64,000 nucleotides of DNA, from contig CACKNC010000001.1 in NCBI GenBank assembly GCA_902601455.1, forward strand, positions 167,162 to 231,161, read 5' to 3'. How positions within the stretch are numbered: position 1 is the stretch's first letter; every line of letters starts with the position of its first letter. Below are positions 11,453 through 28,416 of this stretch, in pieces. Made by a program: the position numbers and the translations under genes. Source of the stretch: an uncultured Alphaproteobacteria bacterium (lineage in GTDB: Bacteria > Pseudomonadota > Alphaproteobacteria > HIMB59 > GCA-002718135). The notes beneath the pieces are model-generated. The model was not told the DNA's origin and ran no database searches. It saw nothing but the letters and a program-made list of their open reading frames with translations.

Positions 11453-12343
11453 ATGAAAATTGGTATTGATCTTGGTGGTACAAAGACCGAGGGTATTTTA
11501 ATAGACGATACAGGTAAAGAATTAGCAAGAAATAGAATTAAAACAGAGAAAAATTATGATGGCACTATAAGTGGTATTATTTCAATAGTAAAAAAGTTTG
11601 AAACTGATTTTGGGGATTCTGAATCTGTAGGAATAGGGATGCCAGGTTGTGTCTCTTCAGACTCAGCTTTAGTAAAGAATGCTAATTCAATTTGGTTAAA
11701 TGGTAAACCGTTTAAGAAAGATCTTGAAAAAGAACTTGAGAGACGAGTTAATTTAGAAAATGATGCCAACTGTTTTGCTTTATCAGAAGCAGTCGATGGA
11801 GCTGGAAAAGGTCATCCAGTTGTTTTTGGGGTAATTATTGGTACTGGAACTGGTGGGGGAATCTCTATAAACCAAAAAGTTCTTGCTGGAAAAAATAATA
11901 TAGCTGGTGAATGGGGACATGTTGGTCTTCCAAACAGATCTGATGATGAAAAAAAATATGTGAAACGATGTTATTGTGAAAAAAATGGATGTATGGAAAC
12001 ATATGTTTCTGGCCCCGGATTTGCAAGTTCTTTTAACTTAAAACATAAAACAGATTATGACTCTCACGCTATTTTAAATGAATTTAATAACAACGAAACT
12101 AGAGCAATTGAAGCTTTGGAAAATTATGTAGATCATCTTGCTAGAGGTCTATCTTTGGTTTGTAATATCTTAGATCCAGATATTATTGTCCTAGGTGGTG
12201 GAATGTCTAATATTTCATTTATTTATGAGCATATAAATACATCTCTTAAAAAATATATTTTTAGTGATACATTTAATACAAAAGTGGTAAAAAATGTTCA
12301 CGGTGACTCTGGGGGAGTAAGAGGTGCTGCTTGGCTCTCTTAA
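11453..12343 (+). CDS. ROK-family sugar kinase (Mak/fructokinase-like)
   Basis: GIDLGGTK, ENDANCFALSEAVDGAG, GTGTGGG, GEWGH, CYCxxxGCMET Zn motif, HGDSGGVRGAAWL. Confidence 0.88.
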   Translation: MKIGIDLGGTKTEGILIDDTGKELARNRIKTEKNYDGTISGIISIVKKFETDFGDSESVGIGMPGCVSSDSALVKNANSIWLNGKPFKKDLEKELERRVNLENDANCFALSEAVDGAGKGHPVVFGVIIGTGTGGGISINQKVLAGKNNIAGEWGHVGLPNRSDDEKKYVKRCYCEKNGCMETYVSGPGFASSFNLKHKTDYDSHAILNEFNNNETRAIEALENYVDHLARGLSLVCNILDPDIIVLGGGMSNISFIYEHINTSLKKYIFSDTFNTKVVKNVHGDSGGVRGAAWLS

Positions 12344-13791
12344 ATACCTGCCATTGAAATATATTTAATATTTAGATAGTCATCCAAGCCATATTTAGAA
12401 CCTTCTCTTCCAAGTCCTGATTCTTTTACTCCTCCAAAAGGTATTTCAGCTTTTGTAGTAAGGCCAGTATTTACACCTACCATTCCATATTCAAGAGCTT
12501 CTGCCACTCTCCAAATTCTTCCAATATCTCTAGAATAAAAATAAGAAGCAAGACCGTATGGTGTATCATTTGCCATTTTAATAACTTCTTCATCAGAGCT
12601 AAATTTATATAAAGGAGCTACAGGTCCAAAAGTTTCTTCATAAGTAATTTTTGCTTTGTTAGTTACATCAGATAGGACTGTTGGTTGAAAAAAATTACCA
12701 CCAAGTGAATGCACATCACCTCCAACAGCAATTTTTGCTCCCTGATTAACTGCATCTTTAACTTGATCCATAACTTTCATTAAAGAAGGCTGATCAATTA
12801 AAGGTCCAGATACAATTCCTTCCTCTAAACCATTACCAACTTTTATTTTATTTACTTCAGCAATAAACTTATTTAAAAATTCATCATAAACCTTTTCATG
12901 TACAAAAATTCTATTGGCACATATACATGTTTGCCCAGAATTTCTAAATTTACTTTGCATAGCTCCTGTTACAGCTTCATCTAAATCTGCATCATCAAAA
13001 ACTACAAAAGGTGCATGACCTCCAAGCTCCATAGAAACTTTTTTAACAGTAGTAGCACTTTGATGTAAAAGAACTTTTCCAACTTCTGTTGAGCCAGTAA
13101 ATGATATTTTTCTCACTAAAGGATTTTCAGTTAACTCTTTGCCAATAGCACTAGCTGATCCTGTGATTATATTTATTACACCATCAGGAAATCCTGCTTC
13201 TTTTGCTAATGCGCCAAGCGCTAGAGCAGAATATGGAGTTTGACTGGCAGGTTTGATTACAATAGTACATCCAACGGCTAGAGCGGGAGCACATTTTCTT
13301 GTTATCATTGTGCTAGGAAAGTTCCACGGTGTTATTGCACCTACAACTCCTACAGGTTGTTTTATAACAACTATTCTTCTATCTGGCATTGGATCAGGTA
13401 TTATATCTCCGTAAACTCTTTTCCCTTCTTCCGCATAAAAATCTATGTAGGTAACACCCATTAATATTTCACCTTTTGCTTCAGCTAAGGGTTTACCTTG
13501 TTCAATTGTCATTATTTTTGCTAAGTCATCAGCATTTGTTTCAATAAGTCTTGCCCATTTTTGTAAAATGACCGATCTCTCTTTAGCAGTTTTGTCTCTC
13601 CATGAAGGAAATGCAGCTTGGGCTTCTTGAATTGCCTTTTGCGTTTCTGAAGTTGAACATTTAGGAACTTCACCAATAATTTCACCATTAGCGGGATTAT
13701 CTACCTTGATTTTTTCACCAGTATCACTTTCAATCCATTTTCCACCGATAAAACAAGTTTCCTTAAAAAGTGTATTATTTTTTAGTTCCAT
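12340..13791 (-). CDS. gabD: NAD(P)-dependent succinate-semialdehyde dehydrogenase family (GabD; probable DoeC/Ssd role from context)
   Basis: ITPWNFPSTMITRK, FTGSTEVGK, MELGGHAPF, KFRNSGQTCIC, EETFGP, PFGGVKESGLGREG; divergent from eut genes. Confidence 0.88.
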   Translation of the reverse strand: MELKNNTLFKETCFIGGKWIESDTGEKIKVDNPANGEIIGEVPKCSTSETQKAIQEAQAAFPSWRDKTAKERSVILQKWARLIETNADDLAKIMTIEQGKPLAEAKGEILMGVTYIDFYAEEGKRVYGDIIPDPMPDRRIVVIKQPVGVVGAITPWNFPSTMITRKCAPALAVGCTIVIKPASQTPYSALALGALAKEAGFPDGVINIITGSASAIGKELTENPLVRKISFTGSTEVGKVLLHQSATTVKKVSMELGGHAPFVVFDDADLDEAVTGAMQSKFRNSGQTCICANRIFVHEKVYDEFLNKFIAEVNKIKVGNGLEEGIVSGPLIDQPSLMKVMDQVKDAVNQGAKIAVGGDVHSLGGNFFQPTVLSDVTNKAKITYEETFGPVAPLYKFSSDEEVIKMANDTPYGLASYFYSRDIGRIWRVAEALEYGMVGVNTGLTTKAEIPFGGVKESGLGREGSKYGLDDYLNIKYISMAGI

Positions 13792-13857: not shown

Positions 13858-14964
13858 ATGACAATAGTTAACTCGTGGAATGAATGGGATCCATTGAAGC
13901 ACGTAATCGTTGGTACAGTTGAGCAATCAAATATACCACCAATGGAACCTGCTTTGGAACCTAAAATTAGTAAAGATAGTGGTATGGCTGGATCACATGG
14001 ACCGCGTTCAAATGAGGCTATAGAAAAAGCAAATATACAACTTGATAATTTTGTTAAAATACTTGAGTCACACGATATAAAAGTAGATCGTCCTACACCA
14101 ATAGATTTTACAAAAGCAATCGCAACACCTGATTGGGAAAATGATGGACAGTTTGGATCCATGCCACCAAGAGATGTAATTCTAACAGTGGGTAATGAAA
14201 TGCTAGAAGCACCCATGTCATATCGTTGTAGGTGGTTTGAATATCTTGCTTACAGACCTTTACTCGAGAGGTACTATGATGAAGATCCTAATATGCGTTG
14301 GGAGTCTGCACCTAAACCAAGATTAACAAGTACAACTTATAAATCAAACTATATACCTGAAGGAATTACAGAGGAAGAAAGATACAAAAAGATTGAAAAT
14401 AGAGATATGATTTTAACAGAGCAAGAACCTTTATTTGATGCAGCTGAAGTTTTGCGCTTTGGAAAAGATTTATTTTATCATAATAATTTTACTTCTAACC
14501 TCAAAGGGCTGAACTGGTTAAAAAGACATTTTCCTAACCACCGTGTTCACCAAATAAATTTACCAGGAGAATTAATTCCAACTCATATAGATGCTTGTTT
14601 CACACCCATTAAACCAGGCACTATAATCATCAATCCTAATAGAAAAATTTCCAATGAGCAGAAAAAAATTTTTGATGATAATAATTGGGAGATTGTTGAC
14701 GCAGCCCCATCAGTGCACAATACACCACCTCCAATGTGTTATTCATCTATTTGGTTATCAATGAATGTTCTAATTTTAAATCCAACAACTATTTGTGTTG
14801 AAGCTTCTGAGGAAAAAATGATTAAACAAATGGAAGGATTTGGTATGACTGTTGTTCCTGTTCCTTTTAGAGATGTGTATGCTTTTGGTGGTAGTCTTCA
14901 TTGCGCAACAACTGATGTTTATAGAGAAGGCGAATGTGAAGATTACTTCCCAAATCAATCATGA
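13858..14964 (+). CDS. Amidinotransferase (glycine/inosamine amidinotransferase family, pentein superfamily)
   Basis: VNSWNEWDPLKHVIVG N-terminus, MPPRD, RWFEY; Asp/His/Cys triad motifs PLFDAA, THIDACF, GGSLHCAT. Confidence 0.88.
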   Translation: MTIVNSWNEWDPLKHVIVGTVEQSNIPPMEPALEPKISKDSGMAGSHGPRSNEAIEKANIQLDNFVKILESHDIKVDRPTPIDFTKAIATPDWENDGQFGSMPPRDVILTVGNEMLEAPMSYRCRWFEYLAYRPLLERYYDEDPNMRWESAPKPRLTSTTYKSNYIPEGITEEERYKKIENRDMILTEQEPLFDAAEVLRFGKDLFYHNNFTSNLKGLNWLKRHFPNHRVHQINLPGELIPTHIDACFTPIKPGTIIINPNRKISNEQKKIFDDNNWEIVDAAPSVHNTPPPMCYSSIWLSMNVLILNPTTICVEASEEKMIKQMEGFGMTVVPVPFRDVYAFGGSLHCATTDVYREGECEDYFPNQS

Positions 14965-15713
14965 GTAAATTTATACAGCATGATTTAATAGCAGACATTG
15001 TTAAAACTAATAATCCGAGAATTGGTGTCATTGCTTTATCAACAGATTTCACAATTGAACAAGATTATAGAAATATTTGTCACTCAGTTCCAGTAGATAT
15101 TTTTGTTAATCGTATACCTTTTGAAAATCCATTAAATCATGAAAATTATTTAAAAATGGCAGATTATATTAGTGAGGTCTCATCACAGATTTTACCATCT
15201 GAGGATATTGATATTATAGCATATGGATGCACTTCTGGAACGATCGCTATTGGGTCAGATAAAATAAAAGCAGAGGTCAATAAAACTAAACCAAATGCCA
15301 AAGTCACAACTCCAATAACAGCAGCGTTGAAAGCTTTTAAATATTTAGGTTTAAAAAATATTGCAGTTCTAACTCCTTATCCAAAAGATGTAAATGCAAC
15401 TGTTTATGATTACTTAATTGCTCATAATATTGGTATTGAGTCTTTTAGTTCTTTTAACTTAGAATATGACTCTGAAATTGCTCAAGTAAGTTTAGACAGT
15501 TTAGAAAAAGAAATTTCAAAAATTGATCTCAGTAATGTTGATGGATTATTTGTTTCTTGTACTGCTCTTAAAATTGTAGATGTATTAGAGAGAGTTGAAA
15601 GCTCTCAAAATACAGTAGTAATATCAAGTAATCAGGCTATTATATGGGATTGTTTAAGGTCAGTTGGTATTGAATCAAAAATAGAGGGCTATGGTAAATT
15701 ATTAGCCAGCTGA
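14961..15713 (+). CDS. eutA: Ectoine utilization protein EutA (Asp/Glu racemase / maleate isomerase fold)
   Basis: RIGVIALSTDFTIEQD, YGCTSG and FVSCTAL Cys pair, LTPY, SSNQA; precedes eutB-eutC. Confidence 0.8.
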   Translation: MSKFIQHDLIADIVKTNNPRIGVIALSTDFTIEQDYRNICHSVPVDIFVNRIPFENPLNHENYLKMADYISEVSSQILPSEDIDIIAYGCTSGTIAIGSDKIKAEVNKTKPNAKVTTPITAALKAFKYLGLKNIAVLTPYPKDVNATVYDYLIAHNIGIESFSSFNLEYDSEIAQVSLDSLEKEISKIDLSNVDGLFVSCTALKIVDVLERVESSQNTVVISSNQAIIWDCLRSVGIESKIEGYGKLLAS

Positions 15714-15751: not shown

Positions 15752-16702
15752 TTGATAAATTTAGAGAAAATTAAAAAAGCACATGAAGCTATTTCTCCCT
15801 ATATCAATAGGACTCCACTTATATTATCAAATTATTTATCTAAAGATAGAATTGTTAAGTTAAAGTTAGAGTCACTTCAAATTACCAACTCCTTTAAATT
15901 ACGCGGTGCTACAAATAAATTATTGTCATTAGATAATGAACAAAAACAAAAAGGTGTAATAGCTGTATCTACTGGTAATCACGGTAAAGGAGTTGCCTAT
16001 GCTGCAAGTGTTCTTGGCATTCAATCAACAATCTATATGTCGTCAATGGTTCCTCAATACCGTAAAGAAGCAATTGAAGCCTTAGGTGCTAAAGTTCAAA
16101 TTATTGGCAATAATAGTGATGAAGCTGACTTGCATGCAAAAAAAATTTCGAAAGAACAAAATATTACTTTAGTTCACCCATTTGATGATGAAGAAGTAAT
16201 TGCAGGTCAAGGAACTGTGGGTTTAGAAATGCTAGAGGATTTTCCTGAGGTAGATACTGTTATCATCCCAACTTCTGGCGGCGGATTAATTGGAGGTATT
16301 GCTTTAGCTATTAAATTACAAAAACCATCTGTGAACATAATAGCAGTTTCTATGGAAAGAGGACCTTCTATGTATGAAAGTTTGAAAAATGGCAAACCAA
16401 CAGATGTTGAAGAGTTAGAAACATTGGCTGATTGCTTGGGTGGAAGTATAGGTTTGGATAATCAATATACTTTTAAAATAGCTCAAGATACAATTGATGA
16501 TTTTGTTCTCGTGAGTGAAAATAAAATTGCTGAAGGTATAAAATTTAATTTTATTGAACATAAACTTGTAACAGAAGGAGCTGCTGCAACAGGCGTCATG
16601 GTAGTTAAAGATAATATGTCTAAAAAAATTGGTAAAAATATAATTAGTCTAATATGTGGTGGAAATATTGATGCTGATCTTTTTAATAAAATAATTTCAT
16701 GA
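15752..16702 (+). CDS. eutB: Threonine dehydratase-like hydroxyectoine utilization dehydratase EutB (TTG start)
   Basis: KLESLQITNSFKLRGATN (PLP Lys), STGNHG, MSSMVP, SGGGL, LADCLGGSIGLDN. Confidence 0.85.
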   Translation: MINLEKIKKAHEAISPYINRTPLILSNYLSKDRIVKLKLESLQITNSFKLRGATNKLLSLDNEQKQKGVIAVSTGNHGKGVAYAASVLGIQSTIYMSSMVPQYRKEAIEALGAKVQIIGNNSDEADLHAKKISKEQNITLVHPFDDEEVIAGQGTVGLEMLEDFPEVDTVIIPTSGGGLIGGIALAIKLQKPSVNIIAVSMERGPSMYESLKNGKPTDVEELETLADCLGGSIGLDNQYTFKIAQDTIDDFVLVSENKIAEGIKFNFIEHKLVTEGAAATGVMVVKDNMSKKIGKNIISLICGGNIDADLFNKIIS

Positions 16703-17679
16703 CACTGATACTTAATTCAACCGAAATAAAAGATTGTGTGAAATTTAATAAAGACCTTATCCCAATAATCGAAGATGCATTTAAAAGCTTGTCACTGGGT
16801 AAAACAGTTATGCCTCCCATATTAAGAGTTGATATAGAAAAATATCATGGTGAGTCAGATGTGAAGGCAGCTTATATTGAGGGTTTAGATAGCTTTGCTG
16901 TGAAAGTTGCTTCAGGATTTTTTAATAATCCAAAGTTAGGTTTACCATCTAGTAATGGATTAATGATTCTATTAGACTCTCAAACAGGAGTTATCAAATC
17001 CGTACTTTTAGATAAAGGATATTTAACTGATGTCAGAACTGCTATTGCGGGAGCAATAGCGTCGAAATATTTATCTAATCCAGAATCTTCTACAGTTGCA
17101 ATAATTGGAGCTGGTATACAAGCGCGTATGCAACTTGAGGCACTAACGCTAGTAAGAGATATTAAAAATGTTAATGTATGGTCTCGAGATATAGAAAAAA
17201 CTCATGTCTATATTGAAAATATGAGTAAAAATTTTAATCTAAATTTTCAAGCTTTTGATAATACAGATGATTTAGTGAAAAATGCGGACATTTTAATTAC
17301 AACAACTCCAAGTAAAAACCCTCTTATAAAATATTCTTCATTACCTAGAGGAATTCATATTACAGCAATGGGATCAGATGCTGAGGAAAAAAATGAATTA
17401 GATCCAGAAATTATTGAAAATTGTGATGTTTATGTTCCAGATAATCAGGCTCAAACAATGATTTTAGGTGAGTTAAATCACGCTATCAAAAGGGATTCAA
17501 TTAAAAATGATACAATCTTTAATGATTTAGGAAAAGTAATTATTAACTCTAAATTAGGAAGAAAAAATCATGAGGATATTTCGGTGGCCGACTTAACAGG
17601 CACGGGAGTGCAAGACACAGCAATTGCTCGATATGCTTATGCAATTGCAGATAAAAAAAAATTAGGAATAATTGTTTAA
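16699..17679 (+). CDS. eutC: Ornithine cyclodeaminase-family ectoine utilization protein EutC
   Basis: MPPILR, KVASGFFNNPKLGLPSSNGLM, GYLTDVRTA, MGSDAEEKNEL, ADLTGTGVQDTAIA. Confidence 0.88.
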   Translation: MTLILNSTEIKDCVKFNKDLIPIIEDAFKSLSLGKTVMPPILRVDIEKYHGESDVKAAYIEGLDSFAVKVASGFFNNPKLGLPSSNGLMILLDSQTGVIKSVLLDKGYLTDVRTAIAGAIASKYLSNPESSTVAIIGAGIQARMQLEALTLVRDIKNVNVWSRDIEKTHVYIENMSKNFNLNFQAFDNTDDLVKNADILITTTPSKNPLIKYSSLPRGIHITAMGSDAEEKNELDPEIIENCDVYVPDNQAQTMILGELNHAIKRDSIKNDTIFNDLGKVIINSKLGRKNHEDISVADLTGTGVQDTAIARYAYAIADKKKLGIIV

Positions 17680-17691
17680 TAAATTAATTAT

Positions 17692-19986
17692 ATGACTAAT
17701 TTTGTTAGCACACATTGGGGAACATACGAAACTTCAAAAAATAATCAAAATAATATAAAGATTAATAAATGGTCAAAAGATCCAAATCCTTCTGATTTTG
17801 GACTAGGTTTTCTTGATGCAGCAACAAGTGATCTAAGAATCAATCAGCCGCACATAAGAAAAGAATGGCTTAAAGATCGACATAATAAAAAAAATCTAAG
17901 AGGCTTAGATGAGTTTGTTCCAGTATCATGGGAAGAAGCAATTGATTTAACAGCATCTGAACTTCAAAATGTAAAAAAAGAATTTGGTAATAGTTCTATT
18001 TATGCCGGTTCATATGGTTGGGCTAGTGCTGGAAGGTTTCATCATGCAAAAAGCCAATTAAATCGTTTTTTTAATTTATTTGGAGGTTTTTCATCTTCTT
18101 TTCAAAGCTACTCTTACGCAGCAGCCCAAACATTATTGCCTCATATAGTTGGTCATGACCTTTACTCCTTTTTGGATGAACATAATACTTGGAATACTCT
18201 TGAAAAAGAATGCGATTTAATAGTAATGTTTGGAGGAATGCCTTTAAAAAACTCTCAAGTATCTGCCGGTGGAGTTGGAAAGCACACTACAGAAAAAGAG
18301 TTAAGAAAATGTGTTAACGCAGGGACTAAATTTATAAATATTAGTCCAAATGCTAGTGACGCTGCTAAATTTCTGAATGCTAAACAAATATCTATAATCC
18401 CTAATACTGATACGGCTTTAATGTTAAGCTTAGCTTATATTTTAATTACTTCCAATAACTATGATCAAAAATTTATTGAAGAGTATACTAATGGCTTTAA
18501 CGAATTTAAATCATATGTTTTAGGAGAAAAAAATAATAAACCATGTACACCTGAATGGGCCTCAAGCATTACTTCAATACCTGTGGAAACAATAAAATGG
18601 TTAGCAAAAGAAATTTCTGCAAAAAAAACAATGGTCTCAGTTTCATGGAGTCTGCAAAGGGCTTCTGCAGGAGAACAGCCTTTATGGATGGGTATCACTT
18701 TAGCTTCAATGTTGGGACATATAGGAACTGAAGGAGGAGGGATTGGTTTTGGGTATTCAAGTGTTAATAGCACTGGTGATGTATTTAAAAAAATACCATG
18801 GAAAAGTTTACCTCAAGGTAATAATAAAATTAGAGATTTCATACCAGTAGCAAGGATTACTGATATGTTAGAAAAGCCTAATGAATTATTTCAATATGAT
18901 GGGCGTAAATTAAAATATCCTAATATAAAATTAATATATTGGGCGGGTGGTAATCCTTTTCATCATCATCAAGATTTAAATAGATTAGTTAAAGCATGGC
19001 AAAAACCAAAAACTATTATAGTAAATGAAATTTGGTGGAATGCACAAGCAAGACACGCTGATATTATTTTTCCTGCAAATACAGCTTTAGAGAGAAATGA
19101 TATTATGCTTAATCCAAGAGACCCGACCATTATTGCTAACAAAAAAACTATTTCTTCAGTTGGTGAGTCCAAATCAGATTATGAAATATTTTCTAGCCTT
19201 GCTAACAAACTAGGATTTAAAAATTTATTTACGGAGAATAAATCAGAGTTAGATTGGTTAAAATATTTGTGGAATGAAAGTATAAAAGTTTCTGAAGAAA
19301 TGAATCTCAAATTACCAGAATTTAATAAATTTTGGGAGGAAGGTTGCTTTGAAATACCAATTGAAAAAACAAAAAAAATTATGTTTAAAAATTTTAGAGA
19401 TAATCCAGTTAAAAATCCTTTGAATACACCTTCTGGTAAAATTGAAATAACTTCGAATATAATTAAAAATTATAATTTAAAAGATTGTAAAGGTCATCCT
19501 ACCTGGATAGAACCTTATGAATGGCTTGGAAACAAAGATAATTTTCCACTTCATCTAATATCAAATCAGCCAGAGTATAGACTGCATGGCCAATTAGATA
19601 ATGCAGATTATAGCCTTAAAAATAAAATTAAAGATAGGGAACCCGTATTAATTAATTCTGCAGATGCAAAAGAAAGAAATATTGAGAATAATGATATTGT
19701 TTTAATATTTAATAAACGTGGAAGAGTTTTTGCGGGAGCAAGATTATCTGATGAAGTTTCGAAAGGAGTATTAGTTTTATCTACAGGCGCTTGGTTCGAT
19801 CCTGATTATGAAATTAATGCAGATTTGCACGGAAATCCTAATGTATTAACAAATGATATTGGAACTTCATTACTCTCACAGGGCCCCACATCTCACACAT
19901 GTTTGGTAGAAATAAGAAAAGCAGAGAAAAATGAAATAAAAAAAGTTACGATTTTTTCAAAACCTCATATACAAAAAAAAGCTTGA
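17692..19986 (+). CDS. DMSO-reductase-family bis-MGD molybdoenzyme (BisC/TorZ-like S-/N-oxide reductase), no signal peptide
   Basis: THWG at N-terminus, GSYGWASAGRFHHA, SYSYAAA (Ser ligand), WAGGNPFHHHQDLN, TPSGKIEI, RLHGQLD, GNPNVLT; no twin-Arg leader and no N-terminal Fe-S Cys motif. Confidence 0.88.
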   Translation: MTNFVSTHWGTYETSKNNQNNIKINKWSKDPNPSDFGLGFLDAATSDLRINQPHIRKEWLKDRHNKKNLRGLDEFVPVSWEEAIDLTASELQNVKKEFGNSSIYAGSYGWASAGRFHHAKSQLNRFFNLFGGFSSSFQSYSYAAAQTLLPHIVGHDLYSFLDEHNTWNTLEKECDLIVMFGGMPLKNSQVSAGGVGKHTTEKELRKCVNAGTKFINISPNASDAAKFLNAKQISIIPNTDTALMLSLAYILITSNNYDQKFIEEYTNGFNEFKSYVLGEKNNKPCTPEWASSITSIPVETIKWLAKEISAKKTMVSVSWSLQRASAGEQPLWMGITLASMLGHIGTEGGGIGFGYSSVNSTGDVFKKIPWKSLPQGNNKIRDFIPVARITDMLEKPNELFQYDGRKLKYPNIKLIYWAGGNPFHHHQDLNRLVKAWQKPKTIIVNEIWWNAQARHADIIFPANTALERNDIMLNPRDPTIIANKKTISSVGESKSDYEIFSSLANKLGFKNLFTENKSELDWLKYLWNESIKVSEEMNLKLPEFNKFWEEGCFEIPIEKTKKIMFKNFRDNPVKNPLNTPSGKIEITSNIIKNYNLKDCKGHPTWIEPYEWLGNKDNFPLHLISNQPEYRLHGQLDNADYSLKNKIKDREPVLINSADAKERNIENNDIVLIFNKRGRVFAGARLSDEVSKGVLVLSTGAWFDPDYEINADLHGNPNVLTNDIGTSLLSQGPTSHTCLVEIRKAEKNEIKKVTIFSKPHIQKKA

Positions 19987-20019
19987 AGAAAAATATTAAT
20001 CAACTAGAAATTAAAACCG

Positions 20020-20796: not shown

Positions 20797-21253
20797 GAGG
20801 AATAGATAAGTTTTCTTTTACGCGATTCATCACAACCATTGAACTAAACCTTTTGATGTTATTATTATTTAAAAAATATTTTTGGGTAAATAGCTCGTAC
20901 TCTTCCATGTCTACAAAAGTTGCGATTAACACATAGTCATAATCACCAGTCACATAATAACACTGCATAACTTCTGGCGCTTTAATCATTAATTTTTTAA
21001 ATTCCTCACTATACTCAACCCCCTCCTTATCGCTTAGAACTTGAACAACAATAGTGATTTTTCGACCAAGAATATTGCGATCAATAATCGAAACATCTTT
21101 TTGTATAATGCCGGCTTTACGCATAGAGTTTATTCTTCTTTGACAAGCTGATGAAGATAAGCCAACTTCTTTTGCTAAAACTTCAGATGTTATTTTGTTA
21201 TTTTCTTGAATTAAATTAAGAATTTTTAGATCAACTGAGTCTATTTTATCCAT
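20789..21253 (-). CDS. Lrp/AsnC-family transcriptional regulator
   Basis: DLKILNLIQ, VGLSSSACQRRI HTH, PEVMQCYYVTGDYDYVL RAM domain. Confidence 0.92.
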   Translation of the reverse strand: MDKIDSVDLKILNLIQENNKITSEVLAKEVGLSSSACQRRINSMRKAGIIQKDVSIIDRNILGRKITIVVQVLSDKEGVEYSEEFKKLMIKAPEVMQCYYVTGDYDYVLIATFVDMEEYELFTQKYFLNNNNIKRFSSMVVMNRVKENLSIPLS

Positions 21254-21388: not shown

Positions 21389-22231
21389 ATGAAAAAAATA
21401 ATTTTATTTTTAGCTTCTTTTTTAATTCTTTTAGGTTCAGCTAAGGTTTCTTTTGCTGAGTCTGATACTTTAAAAAGATTAAAGAAGCAGGGTTATGCGA
21501 CAGTTGCTGTTGCAAATGAGCCGCCATATAGTGATATCAAAACTGATGGATATGTTACTGGTGCTGCTCCAGATGTTGCAAGAGCTGTACTAAACATTCT
21601 TGGTGTTGCAGATTTAAAAGCTGAAGTAATTATGTATGGAGCTATGATACCTGCACTTCAAGCACGAAGAGTAGATATGGCAACTTCAGGTCTTTATATT
21701 AAACCTGATAGGTGTGAGTCTATTATTTATTCTGAACCTGATTTATGTGGAGCGGAAGCTTTTGCAGTTCCTGTTGGAAATCCAAATAACTTGCTTACGT
21801 ATGAAGACATTGCAGCACAGCCTGATTTAAAAATGACTACTTGTGCTGGATGTGCTGAGGAAAAATATGCTTTAGAAAGAGGCGTTTCAGCTGATCAGAT
21901 TGTTTATTTTGATACACCTCCAAGTGGTATCAAAATGCTTCAACAAGGTAGAGTAGATGTATTTGCGCTTTCTGGCTTAGGTACTCAGGATTTATTAAAT
22001 AAAACAAATGACCCTAATCTAGAACTAGTTATGCCTATTACTGGTGTTCCAATTGGATGTGCTGGAGCTGCTTTTAACATGGATGACATAGAGTTCAGAG
22101 CTGAATATAATATGGCACTAGCAAAACTAAAAGCTACTGGAGAGTTTGCTGCTATCATTGAACCATATGGTTTTTCTGCGGAAGCAACCGCTGGTGAGTC
22201 ATATCTTACAAGATGTCCAGACGGAAAATAA
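21389..22231 (+). CDS. ehuB: Ectoine/hydroxyectoine ABC transporter substrate-binding protein EhuB-like
   Basis: Signal peptide, VAVANEPPY, GAAPDVAR, YGAMIPALQARR, GLYIKPDRC; SD GGGAGG. Confidence 0.85.
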   Translation: MKKIILFLASFLILLGSAKVSFAESDTLKRLKKQGYATVAVANEPPYSDIKTDGYVTGAAPDVARAVLNILGVADLKAEVIMYGAMIPALQARRVDMATSGLYIKPDRCESIIYSEPDLCGAEAFAVPVGNPNNLLTYEDIAAQPDLKMTTCAGCAEEKYALERGVSADQIVYFDTPPSGIKMLQQGRVDVFALSGLGTQDLLNKTNDPNLELVMPITGVPIGCAGAAFNMDDIEFRAEYNMALAKLKATGEFAAIIEPYGFSAEATAGESYLTRCPDGK

Positions 22232-22249: not shown

Positions 22250-22281
22250 TTGCCCTGTATTATTACAGGGCAATTTTTTTT
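22250..22281 (+). terminator. Intrinsic terminator/stabilising hairpin after ehuB
   Basis: TTGCCCTGTA-TTAT-TACAGGGCAA followed by T-run. Confidence 0.85.
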
Positions 22282-22284: not shown

Positions 22285-22953
22285 ATGAAAGAAGTTATAG
22301 CCTTTTATCCAATTCTAATTGACGGTACAATTACGACAATTATTTTAACACTTTTAAGTGCTGTGTTAGCCCTTTTTATTTCTTTTGTTGTAGGTCTATC
22401 GAGAATTTCAAAATTTAAAATAGTCAGAATTTTAGCAATAATTTATTTAGAGTTTTTCAGAGGTAGTTCTGCTCTTGTGCAAATGTTTTTTATTTATTTT
22501 GTTTTACCAATGTGGGGGATTTACTTCGATGCTCTAACAGCTGGTGTTATTGCTATTGGGTGTAATTTGGGAGCATATGGGTCAGAAGTAGTGAGAGGTG
22601 GAGTGCTTGCTGTTGGTAAAGAACAGCATGAAGCTTCATTAGCATTAAATTACTCTCCCTATAAAAGATATAGGTATGTAATTATACCTCAAGCAATTCC
22701 AGTTATGATTCCTACTTTTGGAAATTTATTAATTGAGCTTCTTAAGTTAACTGCAGTAGCATCTCTTATTACGATTTCAGACTTAACATTTATGGCTCAC
22801 ATAATTAGAGTTCAGACAGCCTTAACCTTAGAACCTTTCTTAGTGATATTGGTAATTTATTTTATCATCGCTTCAATTTTAGTGAAAATCGTCGACATAA
22901 TTTCTAATAAATTTTCTAAGGGAAGAAATATTATGATGGCGGGAGAAAATTAG
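22285..22953 (+). CDS. ehuC: Ectoine ABC transporter permease EhuC
   Basis: YLEFFRGSSALVQMF, GAYGSEVVRGG, PTFGNLLIELLK. Confidence 0.85.
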   Translation: MKEVIAFYPILIDGTITTIILTLLSAVLALFISFVVGLSRISKFKIVRILAIIYLEFFRGSSALVQMFFIYFVLPMWGIYFDALTAGVIAIGCNLGAYGSEVVRGGVLAVGKEQHEASLALNYSPYKRYRYVIIPQAIPVMIPTFGNLLIELLKLTAVASLITISDLTFMAHIIRVQTALTLEPFLVILVIYFIIASILVKIVDIISNKFSKGRNIMMAGEN

Positions 22954-22955
22954 AT

Positions 22956-23615
22956 ATGTATTGGAGTTGGGAAGTCGCTTTTGATGTATTGCCACAACTA
23001 GCAAAAGGAGTTGTAGTAACTATTCAAGCAACAATTGTTGCATCTATACTAGCTTATGTTTTGGGACTTGGAATAGCTATTTTAAAAATGTCCAAAAGTA
23101 AACTATTGAGAATTGTTTTATATTGGACCACAGAATTTATAAGAAGAACTCCAATCTTAGTTCAACTTTATGTTGTTTTTTATGTTTTACCTGACTACGG
23201 TATTTTTTTTGAAGCTTTTACTTGTGGAGTCTTGGTTTTGGGTATCCATTTTAGTACCTATACTGCTGAGGTCTTTAGGGCTGGTATTGACAATGTTCCA
23301 AAAGGTCAATGGGAAGCAGCAAAATCATTAAATTACAACCAAGTTCAGACTTGGAAAAATGTGATTTTGCCACAGGCAATACCGCCTATGATTCCTCCTC
23401 TCGCAAACTATTTAATCACTATGTTCAAAGAAACACCTTTGCTAGCAGCTATAACCGTTGTTGAATTATTTAGAGCAGCAGACCAGTATAGTAATAGTCA
23501 TTATAAATATCTTGAACCAATGACATTAGTCGGAGTTTTTTTCCTAATAGTCTCTATTCCTTCAGCAATCATAGCTATGAAGTTAGAAAAACGTTTTAAA
23601 CAAAGAAAGATTTGA
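22956..23615 (+). CDS. ehuD: Ectoine ABC transporter permease EhuD
   Basis: WSWE N-terminus, EFIRRTPILVQLY, AEVFRAGI, VPKGQWEAA, MFKETPLL. Confidence 0.85.
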   Translation: MYWSWEVAFDVLPQLAKGVVVTIQATIVASILAYVLGLGIAILKMSKSKLLRIVLYWTTEFIRRTPILVQLYVVFYVLPDYGIFFEAFTCGVLVLGIHFSTYTAEVFRAGIDNVPKGQWEAAKSLNYNQVQTWKNVILPQAIPPMIPPLANYLITMFKETPLLAAITVVELFRAADQYSNSHYKYLEPMTLVGVFFLIVSIPSAIIAMKLEKRFKQRKI

Positions 23616-23617
23616 TT

Positions 23618-25060
23618 ATGCAAAGTAATGTTGTTGAAAAGACTGCAAAATATTTCAAGGAGAAAGGTGTTGTTCTTCCAACAATATCTGAATTAAAAAA
23701 ACCAGATTCAATAAATGAGGATATTAAAAATAAAGTTTTAAAGCTTGATAAAAACGCTATGGATCCGGCAAATTTATTTAGAGTGCACTGGTTTAATAAA
23801 AGAGATCATAGTAAATTTTTAGATGTTCCTGAACATATTGTTTTACCAAGTGAGTTTACAGGTGTTGAAGCAAAAATTATTGTCAATCTTGGTCGTTATT
23901 TCCCACTTATTACCGCACATAAAGTTTTGGCAGCATATGGTTGTTTACTGCCTAGAATTTTGAATGGTTCATTTGATTATACTAAACATAAAGCTGTTTG
24001 GCCTTCTACTGGAAATTACTGCAGAGGAGGCGTAGCTATTTCTAAAATATTAGGTTTTAAAAGTGTAGCAATTCTCCCTGAAGGAATGAGTAAGGAAAGA
24101 TTTAATTGGCTTGAAAAATGGGTCGAGAATAAAAATGATATTATAAAAACTACTGGAACAGAAAGTAATGTTAAAGAAATATATGATGCCTGTAATGAAT
24201 TAGAAAAAGATAAAAATAATGATATTATTAATCAATTTGATGAATATTATAATTATGCAACTCATAGAGCTATTACTGGATCATCATTTGAAAAGTCTTT
24301 TTTAAAAGTAAAAGGTGACTCTAATCTTAGAGCTAGATTTTATGTTTCTGCATCCGGTTCAAGTGGAACACTAGCTGCGGGAGATTACTTAAAAGAAAAT
24401 CTTAACGCTCAAATTGCAGTTGTTGAAGCTACTGAATGCCCAACTCTTCTTTATAATGGTTACGGCGAACATAATATTCAGGGTATTGGAGATAAACATG
24501 TTCCTTTAATACATAATGTTATGAATTCAGATTATGTAGTTGGTGTTTCAGACGAAGCTACAAATAATCTTAATTTATTATTTAATACAGATGAAGGTAA
24601 AAATTATTTAATAAAAAGAAAAGGGTTTGACCCAGATTTTGTAGATAGATTGCCTGAGTTTGGGTTTTCTTCAATTGCCAATATTATTGCTTCTATAAAA
24701 CTTGCTAAAAAAATGAAGCTAACAAAAAATGACGCTATTATAACGGTGGCAACTGATGGAGCTGATTTATATGAAACGGAACTAGCTAAAACAAAAAAAC
24801 AATTTAGTAAAATTTATGATCAGGTCACTTGTGCAGAAATTTTTGCAAAAAATTTTGAAGCAATAACAGTAGATCATACTTTGGAGTTAAGTCAAATTGA
24901 TAAAGAGAGGATTTTTAACTTAGGTTATTATACTTGGGTTGAACAACAAGGAACTAGTTTAGAGGAATTTGAAAGTAGAAGATCTCAGTCTTTCTGGGAT
25001 AAGCATTACAAAGAGATGATTTCACTTGATGAAAAAATTAAAGAGTTTAATTCTCTTTAG
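23618..25060 (+). CDS. Fold-type II PLP-dependent enzyme (cysteine synthase/TrpB superfamily), function unknown
   Basis: AHKVLAAY (PLP Lys), WPSTGNYCRGG, SASGSSGTLAAGD, HNIQGIG; ATG at 23618 preferred over TTG at 23612. Confidence 0.8.
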   Translation: MQSNVVEKTAKYFKEKGVVLPTISELKKPDSINEDIKNKVLKLDKNAMDPANLFRVHWFNKRDHSKFLDVPEHIVLPSEFTGVEAKIIVNLGRYFPLITAHKVLAAYGCLLPRILNGSFDYTKHKAVWPSTGNYCRGGVAISKILGFKSVAILPEGMSKERFNWLEKWVENKNDIIKTTGTESNVKEIYDACNELEKDKNNDIINQFDEYYNYATHRAITGSSFEKSFLKVKGDSNLRARFYVSASGSSGTLAAGDYLKENLNAQIAVVEATECPTLLYNGYGEHNIQGIGDKHVPLIHNVMNSDYVVGVSDEATNNLNLLFNTDEGKNYLIKRKGFDPDFVDRLPEFGFSSIANIIASIKLAKKMKLTKNDAIITVATDGADLYETELAKTKKQFSKIYDQVTCAEIFAKNFEAITVDHTLELSQIDKERIFNLGYYTWVEQQGTSLEEFESRRSQSFWDKHYKEMISLDEKIKEFNSL

Positions 25061-25064: not shown

Positions 25065-26222
25065 ATGAAAACACAAGGACTTCACAATCAGTTGGTTGAG
25101 TGGAGACATGATTTGCACATGCATCCCCAAATCAGTTTTGAAGAAGAATACGCTTCAAATAAAGTAGTCAATTTACTCAAAGATTTTGGCATAGAAGTAC
25201 ATGAGGGAATTGCTAAAACAGGAGTAGTTGGTGTTTTAAAAAAAGGTACTAGTAATAAAAGTATTGGTATTAGAGCAGACATGGATGCTTTACCAATTAA
25301 TGAAATAAATACTTTTTCTTATAAATCTACGATTGAAAACAGAATGCATGCTTGTGGTCATGATGGGCACACAACGATGTTATTAGGTGCTGCAAAATAT
25401 TTAGCAGAACAAGGAAATTTTGATGGCACTATTTATTTTATTTTTCAGCCAGATGAAGAGAATACCCTTGGGGCTAAAACAATGATTGAGGAAGGTTTGT
25501 TTACTAATTTTTCTATAGATGAAGTTTATGGAATGCATAACATACCCGGAATGGAATTAGGAGAATTTGGAACAAGAAAAGGTGGAATAACCACTAGTGA
25601 AAATTTATTTGAAATTTTAATTAAAGGTAAGGGCGGTCATGCAGCTTTGCCTCATATGTCAAAAGATACAATTACCATAGGTAGTCAGATTATATTAGCT
25701 TTACAAACTATTGTATCACGTAAATTAGATCCGGTAGCAGCTGGAGTTGTTTCTGTAACTGAGTTTATTACTGATGGTAAAAAAAATGTTTTGCCAGGTA
25801 ACGGCTTGATAAAAGGAGACGCGAGAGCATTTTCTCAAGAAACTAATAAAATGATTGAAAAAAATATGCGCCAACTTGTTGAAGGTATCTCAAGTTCTTT
25901 TGGAGTTTCTGCTGAAGTAAAGTATGAAACAACTTGTCCAGTAACTTTTAATCAACCTAAACAAGCAGAAGCAGCAACAAAAGCTGCTATCACCTTATTA
26001 GGAGAAGATAAATGTAATGGCGATATTGATCCAAGACCTTTTTCAGAGGATTTTTCAATTATGTCAGAGCATACTCCTGGATGCTTTGTATTAATGGGCA
26101 ATGGAACTTCAGGTTCATATGGAAGACCATTACATTCTGCAGATTATGATTTTAATGATGAGTTATTAGTTAAAGGCTCTTCTTACTGGGTAGAACTTGC
26201 TGAACAACAATTAAAATTATAA
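25065..26222 (+). CDS. M20D (Acy1/hippuricase-like) amidohydrolase
   Basis: WRHDLHMHP, RADMDALP, MHACGHDGH, FQPDEE, GKGGHAA, SEDF, LHSADYDFND. Confidence 0.9.
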   Translation: MKTQGLHNQLVEWRHDLHMHPQISFEEEYASNKVVNLLKDFGIEVHEGIAKTGVVGVLKKGTSNKSIGIRADMDALPINEINTFSYKSTIENRMHACGHDGHTTMLLGAAKYLAEQGNFDGTIYFIFQPDEENTLGAKTMIEEGLFTNFSIDEVYGMHNIPGMELGEFGTRKGGITTSENLFEILIKGKGGHAALPHMSKDTITIGSQIILALQTIVSRKLDPVAAGVVSVTEFITDGKKNVLPGNGLIKGDARAFSQETNKMIEKNMRQLVEGISSSFGVSAEVKYETTCPVTFNQPKQAEAATKAAITLLGEDKCNGDIDPRPFSEDFSIMSEHTPGCFVLMGNGTSGSYGRPLHSADYDFNDELLVKGSSYWVELAEQQLKL

Positions 26223-26245
26223 TTTTTATTTAATGAAAATTTAAG

Positions 26246-27394
26246 ATGTTTAAAAAAAATCTTGAAAAATTAAAACAAGATCTTAACAAAAATAATATTG
26301 ATTTAGCTGTCATTACTGACGATGACTCAATATATTATTTTTCAGGTTATTATGATTTCTTACACATGTCTTTTGGAAGACCAACCATTTTATTAGTTCC
26401 AAAAGATTCAGATACTCTATTGATTACCCCGCTCATCGATGCTCATTTAGTTAAGAAAAATTGTCCAGTTGATAAAATAATCACATGGAATGATGGTGTC
26501 GATAATGAATGGAGAGATGAACTTCCAAAGTATATTAAAAAAAATGTTAATGTAGCAATTGAAAAATTTAAGATTAGCACATTAGTTCTAAATTACATTT
26601 CATCTTTATACGAACAAGAATCACTTAAAAATATTTCACCAATTTTAGATTTAATAAGAATGGTAAAAACTGAAGATGAGCTAAAAATTGCTAAGTCTGC
26701 TGGTAAAGTTGCAAAAGCAATGATGCATGCTGGAAAAGATGCAATTGGGCACAATGTACCTGAATATGAAGTAGCTTTAGCAACCTCTCAAGCAGGTACA
26801 AGAAAAGCTGCTGAAATATTAGAAAATGAATTTAAAGACACTGATATATCTCCTTTAATTCACTTTTTACAAATTATGGCTTCTGGAAAAGATCTACCCA
26901 AAACTCACCATCGATCCTCAACAAAATTAATTAAAGATGGAGAGCCTGTATTTTTGTGTTTTTGTGGCATGACAAACTTTCATAAATTTAAACTTGGTTT
27001 TGATAGAACATTTTGGCTCAAAGAAATTCGTGATGAATCGCAAATTAAAACTTATGAAACTGCTGTGCAATCACAAAAAGCAGCCTTAAGTGTTTTGGGT
27101 CCTGGTGTTAAGGCTGAAGATGTTCATGCAGCTTACGCAGACACTATTCAAAGTGCTGGATATCCTTACCCAACATTTAGATGTGGAAGAGCAACTGGCT
27201 TTAGTATGCTTGAGGAACCCCAGCTAGTTTCAGGAAATAAAACAATTTTACAACCTGGAATGGTTTTTGCTGTTGATGGATCTGCAAATGAAGAAAATTT
27301 TCGTGCTCAAGTTGGTGACAGCTTTATAATTACTGAAAGCGGTTATGAGCAAATTACAAATTTCTCTAAAAAAATTGAAGACTTGATAATTTAA
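26246..27394 (+). CDS. M24 (creatinase/prolidase-fold) hydrolase lacking canonical metal ligands
   Basis: Creatinase_N-like start (SIYYFSGY), RMVKTEDE, pita-bread C-domain with LCFCG, GFDRT, CGRATG, LEEP, AVDG in place of the D/D/H/E/E ligand motifs. Confidence 0.8.
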   Translation: MFKKNLEKLKQDLNKNNIDLAVITDDDSIYYFSGYYDFLHMSFGRPTILLVPKDSDTLLITPLIDAHLVKKNCPVDKIITWNDGVDNEWRDELPKYIKKNVNVAIEKFKISTLVLNYISSLYEQESLKNISPILDLIRMVKTEDELKIAKSAGKVAKAMMHAGKDAIGHNVPEYEVALATSQAGTRKAAEILENEFKDTDISPLIHFLQIMASGKDLPKTHHRSSTKLIKDGEPVFLCFCGMTNFHKFKLGFDRTFWLKEIRDESQIKTYETAVQSQKAALSVLGPGVKAEDVHAAYADTIQSAGYPYPTFRCGRATGFSMLEEPQLVSGNKTILQPGMVFAVDGSANEENFRAQVGDSFIITESGYEQITNFSKKIEDLII

Positions 27395-28416
27395 TGTCAA
27401 TTATTGAAATTTATAATACTCATTGTTGTGGTGAGATAGGTGATGTTATTGTTGCGGGTGATATTAAATTAGAGGGTAAGACAATATTTGAACAATCAAA
27501 ATATTTATTTGAAAATAAAAAACTAAGAAACTTTGTATTAAATGAACCAAGAGGAGGAGTTTTTAAACATTGTAACTTAATTGTAAATCCAAAAAATAAA
27601 GAAGCCTTAGCAGGGTTTATAATTATGGAACCTGAAGACAATCCACCAATGAGTGGTTCAAATAGTATTTGTGTTGCGACAGTATTATTAGAAAAAAATC
27701 TTATAAAGTCTACCGAACCCTACACTAATTTTACTCTTGAAGCTCCTGGAGGTTTAATTGCCATAAAAGCTGAAGTAAAAAATAAAATTACTAAATCTGT
27801 TGAAATTGAAAATCTTCCATCTTTTGTTGATTTAATGGATGTAAAACTTAAAACTAAAAATTATGGAGAAATAGTAGTTAGTACAGTGTTTGGAGGGGAT
27901 ACATTTTTAATCTGTAATGCAAAAGATTTTAATTTATCAATTGAACCCAACAATGCAAAAAAATTTGTAGATATTTCTCGAGAAATTGTAAAAATAGCAA
28001 ATCAAGAATTTGGTTTTTCTCACCCAACAATACCCTCTTTAAATTATATTTCGTTTTGTCAATTTATTGAACCTGTTAAAATAAATAGCTCACAACAAAA
28101 AGAAGGTTGGAACACAGTTAGTATACGTCCTGGTAAACTTGATAGATCCCCTTGTGGAACAGGCACATCTGCAAGATTAGCTCTTATGAAACAAAAAAAT
28201 GAAATTGATATTAATGAAACATTTATTTCTAGATCAATTATTGGCTCAACCTTTGAAGCAAAAATAAAAGAAGAATTTGTTAGCAATAATAAAAAAATGA
28301 TTAAACCTCTAATTAAAGGTTCCGCCTTCATTACAGGAAAACAAGAACTTTATGTTACAAAGGATGATCCATTCCCAGAAGGATACAGGCTTAACGATAC
28401 TTGGCCTGATTTCTAA
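27394..28416 (+). CDS. Proline racemase superfamily enzyme (hydroxyproline epimerase/dehydratase-like), Ser/Cys dyad
   Basis: HCCGEIGDVIV, LNEPRGG, PPMSGSN (Ser) and DRSPCGTGTSAR (Cys), DDPFPEGY. Confidence 0.88.
   Translation: MSIIEIYNTHCCGEIGDVIVAGDIKLEGKTIFEQSKYLFENKKLRNFVLNEPRGGVFKHCNLIVNPKNKEALAGFIIMEPEDNPPMSGSNSICVATVLLEKNLIKSTEPYTNFTLEAPGGLIAIKAEVKNKITKSVEIENLPSFVDLMDVKLKTKNYGEIVVSTVFGGDTFLICNAKDFNLSIEPNNAKKFVDISREIVKIANQEFGFSHPTIPSLNYISFCQFIEPVKINSSQQKEGWNTVSIRPGKLDRSPCGTGTSARLALMKQKNEIDINETFISRSIIGSTFEAKIKEEFVSNNKKMIKPLIKGSAFITGKQELYVTKDDPFPEGYRLNDTWPDF

Follow-up and report, generated by a model that had tools for sequence, protein, structure and literature searches.

What is the substrate of a locus that joins an ectoine-type importer and EutABC-like enzymes to an amidinotransferase, two hydrolases and a molybdoenzyme, and do these genes form a single system at all? 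The locus lies in a stretch of 64,000 nucleotides (C1:167162-231161, here called the window) of G000, the genome of an uncultured bacterium (1.42 Mb, 39 contigs, 85.75% complete, ~31% GC) from a genus of marine Alphaproteobacteria with genomes of 1.0-1.6 Mb and 31% GC. A first-pass annotation had taken it for one re-wired ectoine-type unit, possibly directed at a cyclic amidine or guanidine osmolyte. Our analysis resolves it, very probably, into a mosaic of two units: a core operon, and a cassette of six genes (molybdoenzyme, ehuA, lrp, ehuB, ehuC, ehuD) inserted into it. Genes were called from the open reading frame (ORF) list, Pfam matches, NCBIfam profile scores read against the cut-off of each model, and structure matches against the PDB. 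The comparison covered 104 other genomes of the genus (36 in the case of EhuB), eight congener loci fetched around the amidinotransferase gene (L064-L071), 400 alphaproteobacterial genomes outside the genus, and four canonical ehuABCD-eutABC-eutD clusters found among the latter. By ORF, Pfam and NCBIfam evidence, every gene of the order first annotated, from gabD to proline racemase, is where it had been placed, and the non-canonical enzyme genes are packed as tightly on one strand as was claimed, with same-strand spacings at the locus of -4 to +53 nucleotides (nt).

The core operon and its divergent flanking gene are made up as follows.

12340-13791, minus strand: gabD/ssd-type succinate-semialdehyde dehydrogenase, divergent from the operon (TIGR01780, 716 bits, cut-off 646)
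13858-14964, plus strand: amidinotransferase, relative of AGAT, SxtG and StrB1, first gene of the operon (2e-72 to human AGAT, 1jdw/1jdx)
14961-15713, plus strand: EutA-like protein of the Asp/Glu-racemase/arylmalonate-decarboxylase superfamily (TIGR02990, 213 bits, cut-off 318)
15752-16702, plus strand: EutB-like enzyme of the pyridoxal phosphate (PLP)-dependent threonine-dehydratase family (NF005680, 386 bits, cut-off 413)
16699-17679, plus strand: EutC-like enzyme of the ornithine-cyclodeaminase/mu-crystallin family (TIGR02992, 422 bits, cut-off 472; PRK08291, 451 bits, cut-off 408)
23619-25060, plus strand: fold-type-II PLP enzyme of 480 aa, distantly related to CysK and SbnA (PALP, 35.8 bits; cysteine synthases, 5e-15)
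25065-26222, plus strand: M20D amidohydrolase, a candidate N-acyl-diamino-acid deacylase (TIGR01891, 317 bits, cut-off 154; DoeB2, 314 bits, cut-off 550)
26246-27394, plus strand: metal-free M24 hydrolase with Creatinase_N and M24 folds (Pfam), distinct from DoeA and creatinase
27394-28416, plus strand: proline-racemase-superfamily enzyme of the dehydratase type, last gene of the operon (Pro_racemase, 335 bits; NF047722, 428 bits, cut-off 550)

The cassette fills the interval between the EutC-like and the fold-type-II PLP enzyme.

17692-19986, plus strand: cytoplasmic molybdoenzyme of 764 aa, of the bis-molybdopterin guanine dinucleotide (bis-MGD) S-/N-oxide-reductase type (BisC/DorA/TorA group; TIGR00509, 910 bits)
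20020-20796, plus strand: ehuA, ATPase of an ATP-binding cassette (ABC) transporter, directly 3' of the molybdoenzyme gene (TIGR03005, 398 bits, cut-off 345)
20789-21253, minus strand: Lrp/AsnC-family regulator, divergent from ehuBCD (Pfam AsnC_trans_reg and HTH_24)
21389-22231, plus strand: ehuB, periplasmic binding protein of the ectoine/hydroxyectoine type (TIGR02995, 289 bits, cut-off 191)
22250-22273, plus strand: terminator-like hairpin between ehuB and ehuC, with a 10-bp stem and a T run (a consensus match only)
22285-23615, plus strand: ehuC and ehuD, permeases (TIGR03004, 232 bits, cut-off 197; TIGR03003, 276 bits, cut-off 205)

The distribution of the two units within the genus sets them apart. 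The amidinotransferase is encoded in 84 of the 104 other genomes, and in all six of those at least 90% complete, whereas the molybdoenzyme is found in 9 of the 104 and EhuB in 1 of 36; the insert as a whole is present in about 10 of 105 genus genomes. In six of the eight congener loci (L064-L068, L071) the genes for amidinotransferase, EutA, EutB, EutC, PLP enzyme, M20, M24 and dehydratase follow each other without interruption, and the general order of such loci is gshB, bioY, ROK, divergent gabD, the eight operon genes, an Ldh_2 gene in some, and soxBDAG. When L071 is aligned with both junctions of the window, the insert falls into the short eutC-PLP spacer. The same alignment favours ATG 23619, probably the true start of the PLP gene, over the TTG at 23612 given in the ORF list, which would overlap ehuD. 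In view of these counts and cassette-free loci, we reject the idea that the six extra enzymes form one co-evolved unit with ehu. As a consequence of the insertion, the two halves of the cassette are read together with the two halves of the operon. The single re-wired unit first proposed thus gives way to an operon that is core to the genus and independent of ehu. The claim that the non-canonical enzymes form a conserved set, rather than chance neighbours, is borne out by the genus counts and by congener synteny, except that the molybdoenzyme, which had been listed among them, goes with the ehu cassette, as the free-standing cassettes of L006 and L007 and the metagenome loci described below demonstrate.

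The two remaining congener loci are L069, where the contig ends within the molybdoenzyme gene, and L070 (G065, 7840-8960), a decay variant that retains 264 nt of the PLP gene, has lost M20 and M24 altogether, and lacks the 5' end of the dehydratase gene. In the single-cell genome that holds L008, the operon's M24-type gene carries two in-frame stops, TGA and TAA (G528:C7:50762-51904).

Other genomes of the genus bear other inserts at this locus. In G004 (L099, 5536-15395) and G082 (L100), a molybdoenzyme of 64-66% identity sits between eutA and eutB together with a second ABC system (EhuB-like binding protein, permeases and ATPase), an ArgE-type M20 gene, two M24 paralogues of the DoeA_2-like kind and an amidotransferase-like gene; the second binding protein scores 163 bits on the EhuB model (cut-off 191), and Ala replaces its pocket Glu. 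In G061, the amidinotransferase and eutA are followed by a DoeA paralogue of 40% identity and the same second ABC system, and G020 has a 4-kb insert 3' of the dehydratase gene. The locus is therefore an insertion hotspot. It has repeatedly received modules of one kind (importers of the Ehu type, ring hydrolases of the DoeA type, deacetylases), a bias that points to a functional link between them and the operon.

The cassette has a history of its own. In the distant genomes that hold L006 and L007 (36-37% GC), it stands alone as Mo-ehuA-(lrp)-ehuBCD, flanked by rsmB and, at its other end, by lon-hflX-clpX-clpP-tig. The housekeeping proteins of these genomes are 55% (ClpX), 53% (Lon) and 61% (ClpP) identical to those of G000; EhuA to EhuD are 83-89% identical, far above this level, which indicates that the cassette was shared horizontally with this distant lineage. 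An EhuB alignment used to scan metagenomes brought up 51 loci, of which 25 are at least 7 kb long, and 20 of these 25 have a molybdoenzyme homologue beside ehu; of the other five, three end where the gene would lie, and L045 and L047 are without it. At least three gene orders occur (Mo-ehuA-lrp-ehuBCD, lrp-ehuBCD-Mo-ehuA, and versions without lrp, such as that of G011), lrp thus being part of some versions only; the adjacency of the molybdoenzyme gene and ehuA is retained in most of the rearranged ones. The full arrangement of the window was met only in low-GC metagenome contigs (0.31-0.33). In a third lineage (L050, L058), ehuABCD is followed on the opposite strand by a BisC-family gene whose product is only 47% identical. 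L058 (4137-16332) further holds a MocR-type regulator, Lrp, genes for DctP and DctM of a TRAP (tripartite ATP-independent periplasmic) transporter, and a diaminopropionate-ammonia-lyase-like gene of a type also present in the cluster of G237 discussed below.

Does the cassette import ectoines? All four Ehu proteins exceed their equivalog cut-offs, and EhuB matches its Sinorhizobium meliloti counterpart (2q88) at 2e-80. The ligand residues of EhuB were reportedly worked out by Hanekop in 2007; Glu, Arg and three cage aromatics, which we take to be its ligand contacts, are kept in all 12 sequences of the marine subfamily and in three EhuBs of canonical clusters. The latter have F, Y or W at the cage positions, and at one of these the marine subfamily has Tyr where they have Phe. 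Judging from the profile scores and the pocket, it is likely that the system takes up ectoines. Nothing testable pointed to the guanidine or imidazoline substrate that had been suggested, and a pocket of the ectoine type speaks against it.

A putative ring-opening enzyme of the ectoine type, which the first-pass annotation had named among those of the window, is encoded 7 kb downstream of the operon, beyond soxBDAG:

35530-36702, plus strand: DoeA/EutD-type ectoine hydrolase (TIGR02993, 472 bits, cut-off 613)

It matches DoeA of Halomonas elongata (6twk) over its full length (7e-110, 370 bits, ~52% identity by estimate). DoeA is found in 45 of the 104 other genus genomes and is enriched among cassette carriers, being present in 9 of 10 molybdoenzyme-positive and 37 of 95 molybdoenzyme-negative genomes (Fisher p=0.005, relatives not being independent). 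G526, a distant cassette carrier, has genes outside the cassette for DoeA (563 bits) and for a true EutE (548 bits, cut-off 403). Next to this DoeA gene (L086, G526:C8, 8616-12339) lie, before it, a PLP enzyme of the cystathionine-gamma-synthase family (PRK08249, 685 bits, cut-off 600) and, after it on the opposite strand, Lrp and an EutA-like gene, a gene set that may represent a gamma-eliminating route from diaminobutyrate (DABA).

The canonical parts first reported as missing from the window were, for the most part, not found in the genome either. EutE (TIGR02994) was not found in G000 (85.75% complete), G011 or the 96%-complete congener G112, by the same search that detects it in G526. EnuR was likewise not found at the whole-genome level, in that no GntR regulator of MocR size turned up in G000, its GntR-domain ORFs being of 222 and 334 aa only. 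As for Atf, the window does lack a class-III aminotransferase, but six are encoded elsewhere in G000, none of them over the dat cut-off.

If ectoines are brought in and EutE is missing, could the operon supply a replacement? The M20 and M24 enzymes are candidates. All five prolidase metal ligands of the M24 protein are replaced (C/G/R/D/G), so that the first description of it as ligand-less is accurate: none of the five is retained. The same C/G/R/D/G pattern was found in all three full-length orthologues aligned, including those of G224 and G237; the DoeA group has E/P/Y/.. in these columns, and a canonical M24 of the G237 cluster D/D/H/E/E. On the DoeA models the window protein reaches only 58-61 bits. 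Orthologues of 56-59% identity occur in 3 of the 400 genomes outside the genus (G224, G237, G385), and in each of them an M20 orthologue (49-58% identity) adjoins the M24 gene. An EutA-like gene adjoins the pair in G224 and G385; in G237 the pair lies within a large cluster with an Ehu-like transporter, eutB- and eutC-like genes, a CN-hydrolase, a DoeA_2-like M24, a class-III aminotransferase and the diaminopropionate-ammonia-lyase-like gene. EutD and EutE are themselves said, in a passage of PMC8739950, to act as a bimodule. By analogy, the M24 and M20 enzymes could be a hydrolase/deacylase pair corresponding to EutD/EutE, with hydroxyectoine or a relative as a conceivable substrate; on this view the core operon is most readily taken for a sister system to eutABCDE, serving ectoine-type, nitrogen-rich solutes. 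The non-orthologous lower ectoine pathway that the first-pass annotation had offered as one option, or a sister eut pathway, fits this recurrence with eutA/B/C-like and Ehu-like genes in three alphaproteobacterial genomes.

The EutA-, EutB- and EutC-like proteins are 34%, 45-47% and 47-50% identical, respectively, to those of the canonical clusters, and the model that the EutC-like protein exceeds (PRK08291) is named 'cyclodeaminase'. The gabD-like gene, a core flank in the genus of G000, has counterparts beside the canonical clusters L090 and L091. The fold-type-II PLP enzyme has orthologues of 42-57% identity in 11 of the 400 class genomes with no other gene of the cluster nearby; the ten neighbourhoods inspected in other Alphaproteobacteria had no neighbours in common, and its hits in the ESM Atlas were confined to generic clusters named 'PLP-dependent enzyme'.

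The amidinotransferase gene, which overlaps eutA by 4 nt, encodes a protein that matched no Pfam model at E<=0.001 but aligns with 1jdw over residues 4-364. Its HC, HID (THID) and FDAA motifs match the catalytic Cys, His and Asp, at what we take to be the positions of the triad. The family is mostly biosynthetic, the PDB matches including SxtG, StrB1 and HsvA, and the PLP and EutC-like enzymes have weak matches to the SbnA (2.9e-05) and SbnB (3.9e-30) models. One might thus imagine a biosynthetic operon, in which an SbnA/SbnB-like pair makes a diamino acid that the amidinotransferase turns into a guanidino solute. The SbnA match, however, amounts to 23 bits against a cut-off of 350, the neighbours are catabolic (the three hydrolases or lyases M20, M24 and dehydratase, ssd/gabD, sarcosine oxidase), and the modules inserted at the locus are importers and hydrolases, which makes this explanation very improbable.

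The last gene of the operon is translationally coupled to the M24 gene. Its product does belong to the proline racemase superfamily, whose catalytic pairs Zhao reportedly surveyed in 2014, but the 'proline racemase' label first given to it needs amending: it has a Ser/Cys pair instead of Cys/Cys (motifs PMSGSN and DRSPCGTG), and its best score is to the trans-3-hydroxyproline dehydratase model, if below the cut-off (428 against 550 bits). Two features lie downstream of it.

28423-29424, minus strand: Ldh_2-family dehydrogenase (Ldh_2, 288 bits), of a family that includes pyrroline-2-carboxylate reductases
29575-34633, plus strand: soxBDAG, heterotetrameric sarcosine oxidase (soxB TIGR01373, 593 bits, cut-off 529)

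The first is present in the subgroup of G000, G011, G063 and G020 and absent at this place in L064-L068; the second follows the operon directly in most congeners, L064-L068 included. A dehydratase and a pyrroline-2-carboxylate reductase together constitute the trans-3-hydroxyproline pathway, and the dehydratase homologue with the Ldh_2 gene would be this known pair. With soxBDAG next to the operon, with an operon that is genus-wide without ehu, with a locus that takes other inserts (G061, G004, G082, G020), and with an M24 enzyme whose best solved relative is creatinase (1chm) and which shares the Cys of creatinase at the first metal-ligand column, it could be argued that the operon degrades a compound other than ectoine, either a guanidino or N-amidino compound handled by the amidinotransferase and a creatinase-like, metal-free M24 and feeding sarcosine oxidase, or one containing 3-hydroxyproline, handled by the dehydratase with a pyrroline-2-carboxylate reductase, and that the ehu cassette came to lie in a variable region by accident. 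We consider this unlikely, though it deserves to be kept in mind. The creatinase match is weak, its 82 bits being the level also reached by prolidases (other creatinases, 1kp0 and 7yto, give 39 bits). The inserts are all ectoine-like modules of Ehu-type transporters, DoeA-type M24s and deacetylases, which suggests a functional link; the M24-M20 orthologues elsewhere accompany eutA/B/C-like and Ehu-like genes; and DoeA is enriched among the carriers of the cassette.

In the interval from soxG to doeA (34682-35487), two small ORFs, one of 126 and one of 140 aa, have no NCBIfam match, nor a tblastn match in G011, where doeA directly follows soxG. Further downstream (41027-50874), a PotA/B/C-like polyamine ABC system, a D-amino-acid-dehydrogenase-like gene, two aldehyde dehydrogenases and a 4-hydroxybutyrate-dehydrogenase-like gene may form a polyamine or gamma-aminobutyrate route. 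An Rfam scan of the window gave only tRNA and no riboswitch, and a promoter scan was uninformative, with 69 sites as compared to 86, and thus more, in shuffled sequence.

What, then, is the molybdoenzyme doing beside an ectoine importer? It stays under the cut-off of the bisC_fam model (TIGR00509; 910 against 1017.55 bits, with 917 for the homologue in L058). To Rhodobacter dimethyl sulfoxide reductase (1dms) it aligns with 606 bits from mature residue 11 onwards, and therefore has no twin-arginine translocation (Tat) leader. It has molybdopterin and MGD-binding Pfam domains and no Fe-S domain, and retains the GSYGW motif and the 'YS' context of what, by the DorA numbering, is presumably the Ser ligand; earlier work on Tyr114 of DorA is said to exist. 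MoaC and MoeA, for molybdenum cofactor synthesis, are encoded in G000. Between G000 and G011 the molybdoenzyme is 69% identical and EhuB 97%, and it is the fastest-evolving gene of the cassette everywhere. Over the whole cluster, the identities of these two genomes fall into 64-79% for eutABC, molybdoenzyme, M24, dehydratase and doeA, and 86-97% for the other genes, a contrast that resembles recombination blocks and may reflect merely different constraint.

These properties would agree with a salvage of oxidised zwitterionic solutes, such as methionine sulfoxide, an oxidised osmolyte or another sulfoxide or N-oxide, which an Ehu-like system takes up and the molybdoenzyme reduces in the cytoplasm, the 'ectoine' label of the transporter then being wrong or incomplete. 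The molybdoenzyme lies beside ehuA in nearly every version, including the 47%-identical paralogue of L058, and is the only enzyme of the module in L006 and L007; it retains the Ser ligand and the Tyr/Trp of S-oxide-reducing DorA types without a Tat leader, the genome has the cofactor synthesis genes, and the Tyr in the cage of the marine EhuBs could be taken as a sign of another ligand. Yet the EhuB pocket is otherwise that of the canonical ehu-eut clusters and its score is well over the equivalog cut-off, and cassette-bearing genomes have DoeA, with EutE in addition in G526, so that we regard such a salvage system as rather improbable. For one substrate of this type, trimethylamine N-oxide (TMAO), the case is unfavourable on its own account, because the Tmm-like and Tdm-like genes encoded in the same window would make its reduction futile. 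They belong to a methylated-amine module (56309-63957), which looks like a TMAO transporter with Tmm and Tdm. On the minus strand it has a betaine-type ABC system, made up of a fused permease, an ATPase and a binding protein of the OpuAC type, and a DUF1989+GCV_T protein (62347-63957); its further member is an FMO-like monooxygenase (60632-61966).

A role in hydroxyectoine metabolism offers another way to connect enzyme and importer. The cassette carriers G526 and G527 have no EutC, and their sole EutB relative is an IlvA of the biosynthetic type, which is compatible with a hydroxyectoine-linked role of the molybdoenzyme; reductive removal of the 5-hydroxyl would fit a cassette lineage that has DoeA (and EutE in G526) without EutB and EutC. 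Carried to its furthest consequence, the pairing of ehu with a bis-MGD molybdoenzyme in at least three marine lineages with small genomes would signify an undescribed molybdenum-dependent step, for instance this 5-hydroxyl removal or the reduction of a sulfoxide or of an oxidised, ectoine-like solute, and at the same time the core operon would be a new cyclic amidine/guanidine pathway, with a third class of metal-free M24 as ring opener and a dehydratase of proline-racemase fold whose substrate would be a cyclic beta-hydroxy imino acid, for example 5-hydroxyectoine. In this full form the proposal strikes us as doubtful. We found no paper that ties a molybdoenzyme or an amidinotransferase to ehu/eut, although variants of this sort may already appear in the supplementary cluster figures of PMC13188858 (ehuABCD and ehuBCDA lineages); one review mentions fdhA/fdhD of undefined role in some clusters (PMC5924519).

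On balance, we lean towards a reading of the mosaic locus as a (hydroxy)ectoine-type catabolic system with non-orthologous parts, whose importer cassette was inserted into the core operon. Taken separately, the chances that the core operon acts on ectoine-type solutes seem to us about even, going by homology and gene context. The mechanism would run as follows. Ehu would bring in ectoine and 5-hydroxyectoine, and DoeA would open the ring; the M20 enzyme of the core operon would take over deacetylation from the missing EutE, and the EutABC-like enzymes would handle the hydroxylated intermediate. The fold-type-II PLP lyase, or an aminotransferase encoded elsewhere, would complete the route together with Ssd.

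Several observations weigh against this scheme. EutA, EutB, EutC (TIGR02992) and DoeA each fall under their NCBIfam equivalog cut-offs, and no DABA transaminase was identified in G000. The M20 enzyme scores nearly alike on DoeB2 (314 bits), the generic amidohydrolase model (317) and CpsA (305), and is surpassed on DoeB2 by another M20 of G000 that lies outside the window (C10:15348-16481, 355 bits); the contig of the latter also encodes two class-III aminotransferases. Since the operon is present in about 75 cassette-free genomes of the genus, and 59 of the 104 genomes lack DoeA, ectoine need not be its substrate. Moreover, ectoine catabolism has no use for the amidinotransferase, the dehydratase-type enzyme and the molybdoenzyme, the last of which is in none of the four canonical clusters. 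A hint of expression in favour of the scheme comes from environmental RNA. In four seawater RNA libraries of three studies, Logan contigs match the locus at 92% identity or more, covering 30 of 30 bins in X15 and X16 and 29 in X17 and X19; they span the junctions eutC/molybdoenzyme (17450-18023), molybdoenzyme/ehuA (19824-20237) and ehuD/PLP (23520-23856), and the ehuB bin has the top summed depth in all four runs, but a single transcript cannot be demonstrated from such contigs, DNA carry-over is possible, and low cover does not equal silence.

Whatever its exact chemistry, the locus bears on a wider problem. Ectoine ranks among the main small molecules released by phytoplankton, as stated in a passage of PMC13012070, and how abundant bacterioplankton with small genomes consume it has not been worked out. 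Even in model organisms, the steps of EutABC are called unknown in a section of PMC8739950. Here, nature has performed a 'plug-in' experiment, in which one operon exists with and without an importer cassette; the locus offers a candidate replacement for the EutD/EutE pair, and it presents an ectoine importer paired with a molybdoenzyme in a robust association that awaits explanation. Loci of this kind, as the case also cautions, should not be read as single designed pathways.

How does the locus compare with known systems? The trans-3-hydroxy-L-proline dehydratase pathway shares with it a racemase-superfamily enzyme without a Cys/Cys pair beside an Ldh_2-family dehydrogenase, but the window protein scores 428 against a cut-off of 550, and the Ldh_2 gene is missing here in most congeners. 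Creatinase has the same Creatinase_N and M24 folds without a peptidase metal site, yet no close sequence relationship. With the BisC/DorA/TorA enzymes the molybdoenzyme has the domains in common; it scores ~600 bits against DorA and keeps the Ser ligand and the Tyr/Trp in the active-site funnel, and like BisC it is without an iron-sulfur domain and signal peptide. It differs in its bisC_fam score below the cut-off and in having an ectoine-type ABC importer encoded beside it, a setting that we did not find described. As in the EutD/EutE (DoeA/DoeB) bimodule, an M24-fold hydrolase without a peptidase metal site adjoins an amidohydrolase, and the NCBIfam DoeB2 is, by the name of its model, itself an M20 enzyme; in contrast to DoeA_2 and DoeB2, the M24 has its own C/G/R/D/G signature and the M20 reaches 314 of the 550 bits of the DoeB2 cut-off. 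A further parallel is that to the canonical ehu-eut clusters (ehuABCD-eutABCDE-ssd-atf-enuR). The EhuABCD of the window exceed their cut-offs, eutA/B/C-like genes come in the same order as there, and a DoeA/EutD homologue, Lrp/AsnC and an ssd-type dehydrogenase are nearby; the proteins of the four clusters compared are 34-56% identical to the EhuB, EutA, EutB, EutC and DoeA of the window, and these clusters have gabD and lrp as neighbours. They have no counterpart, however, of its amidinotransferase, PLP enzyme, M20, metal-free M24 and dehydratase. The genome described here, in turn, is without EutE and EnuR and the locus without Atf, its DoeA is split off by soxBDAG, and its ehu genes are an inserted cassette that carries a molybdoenzyme along.

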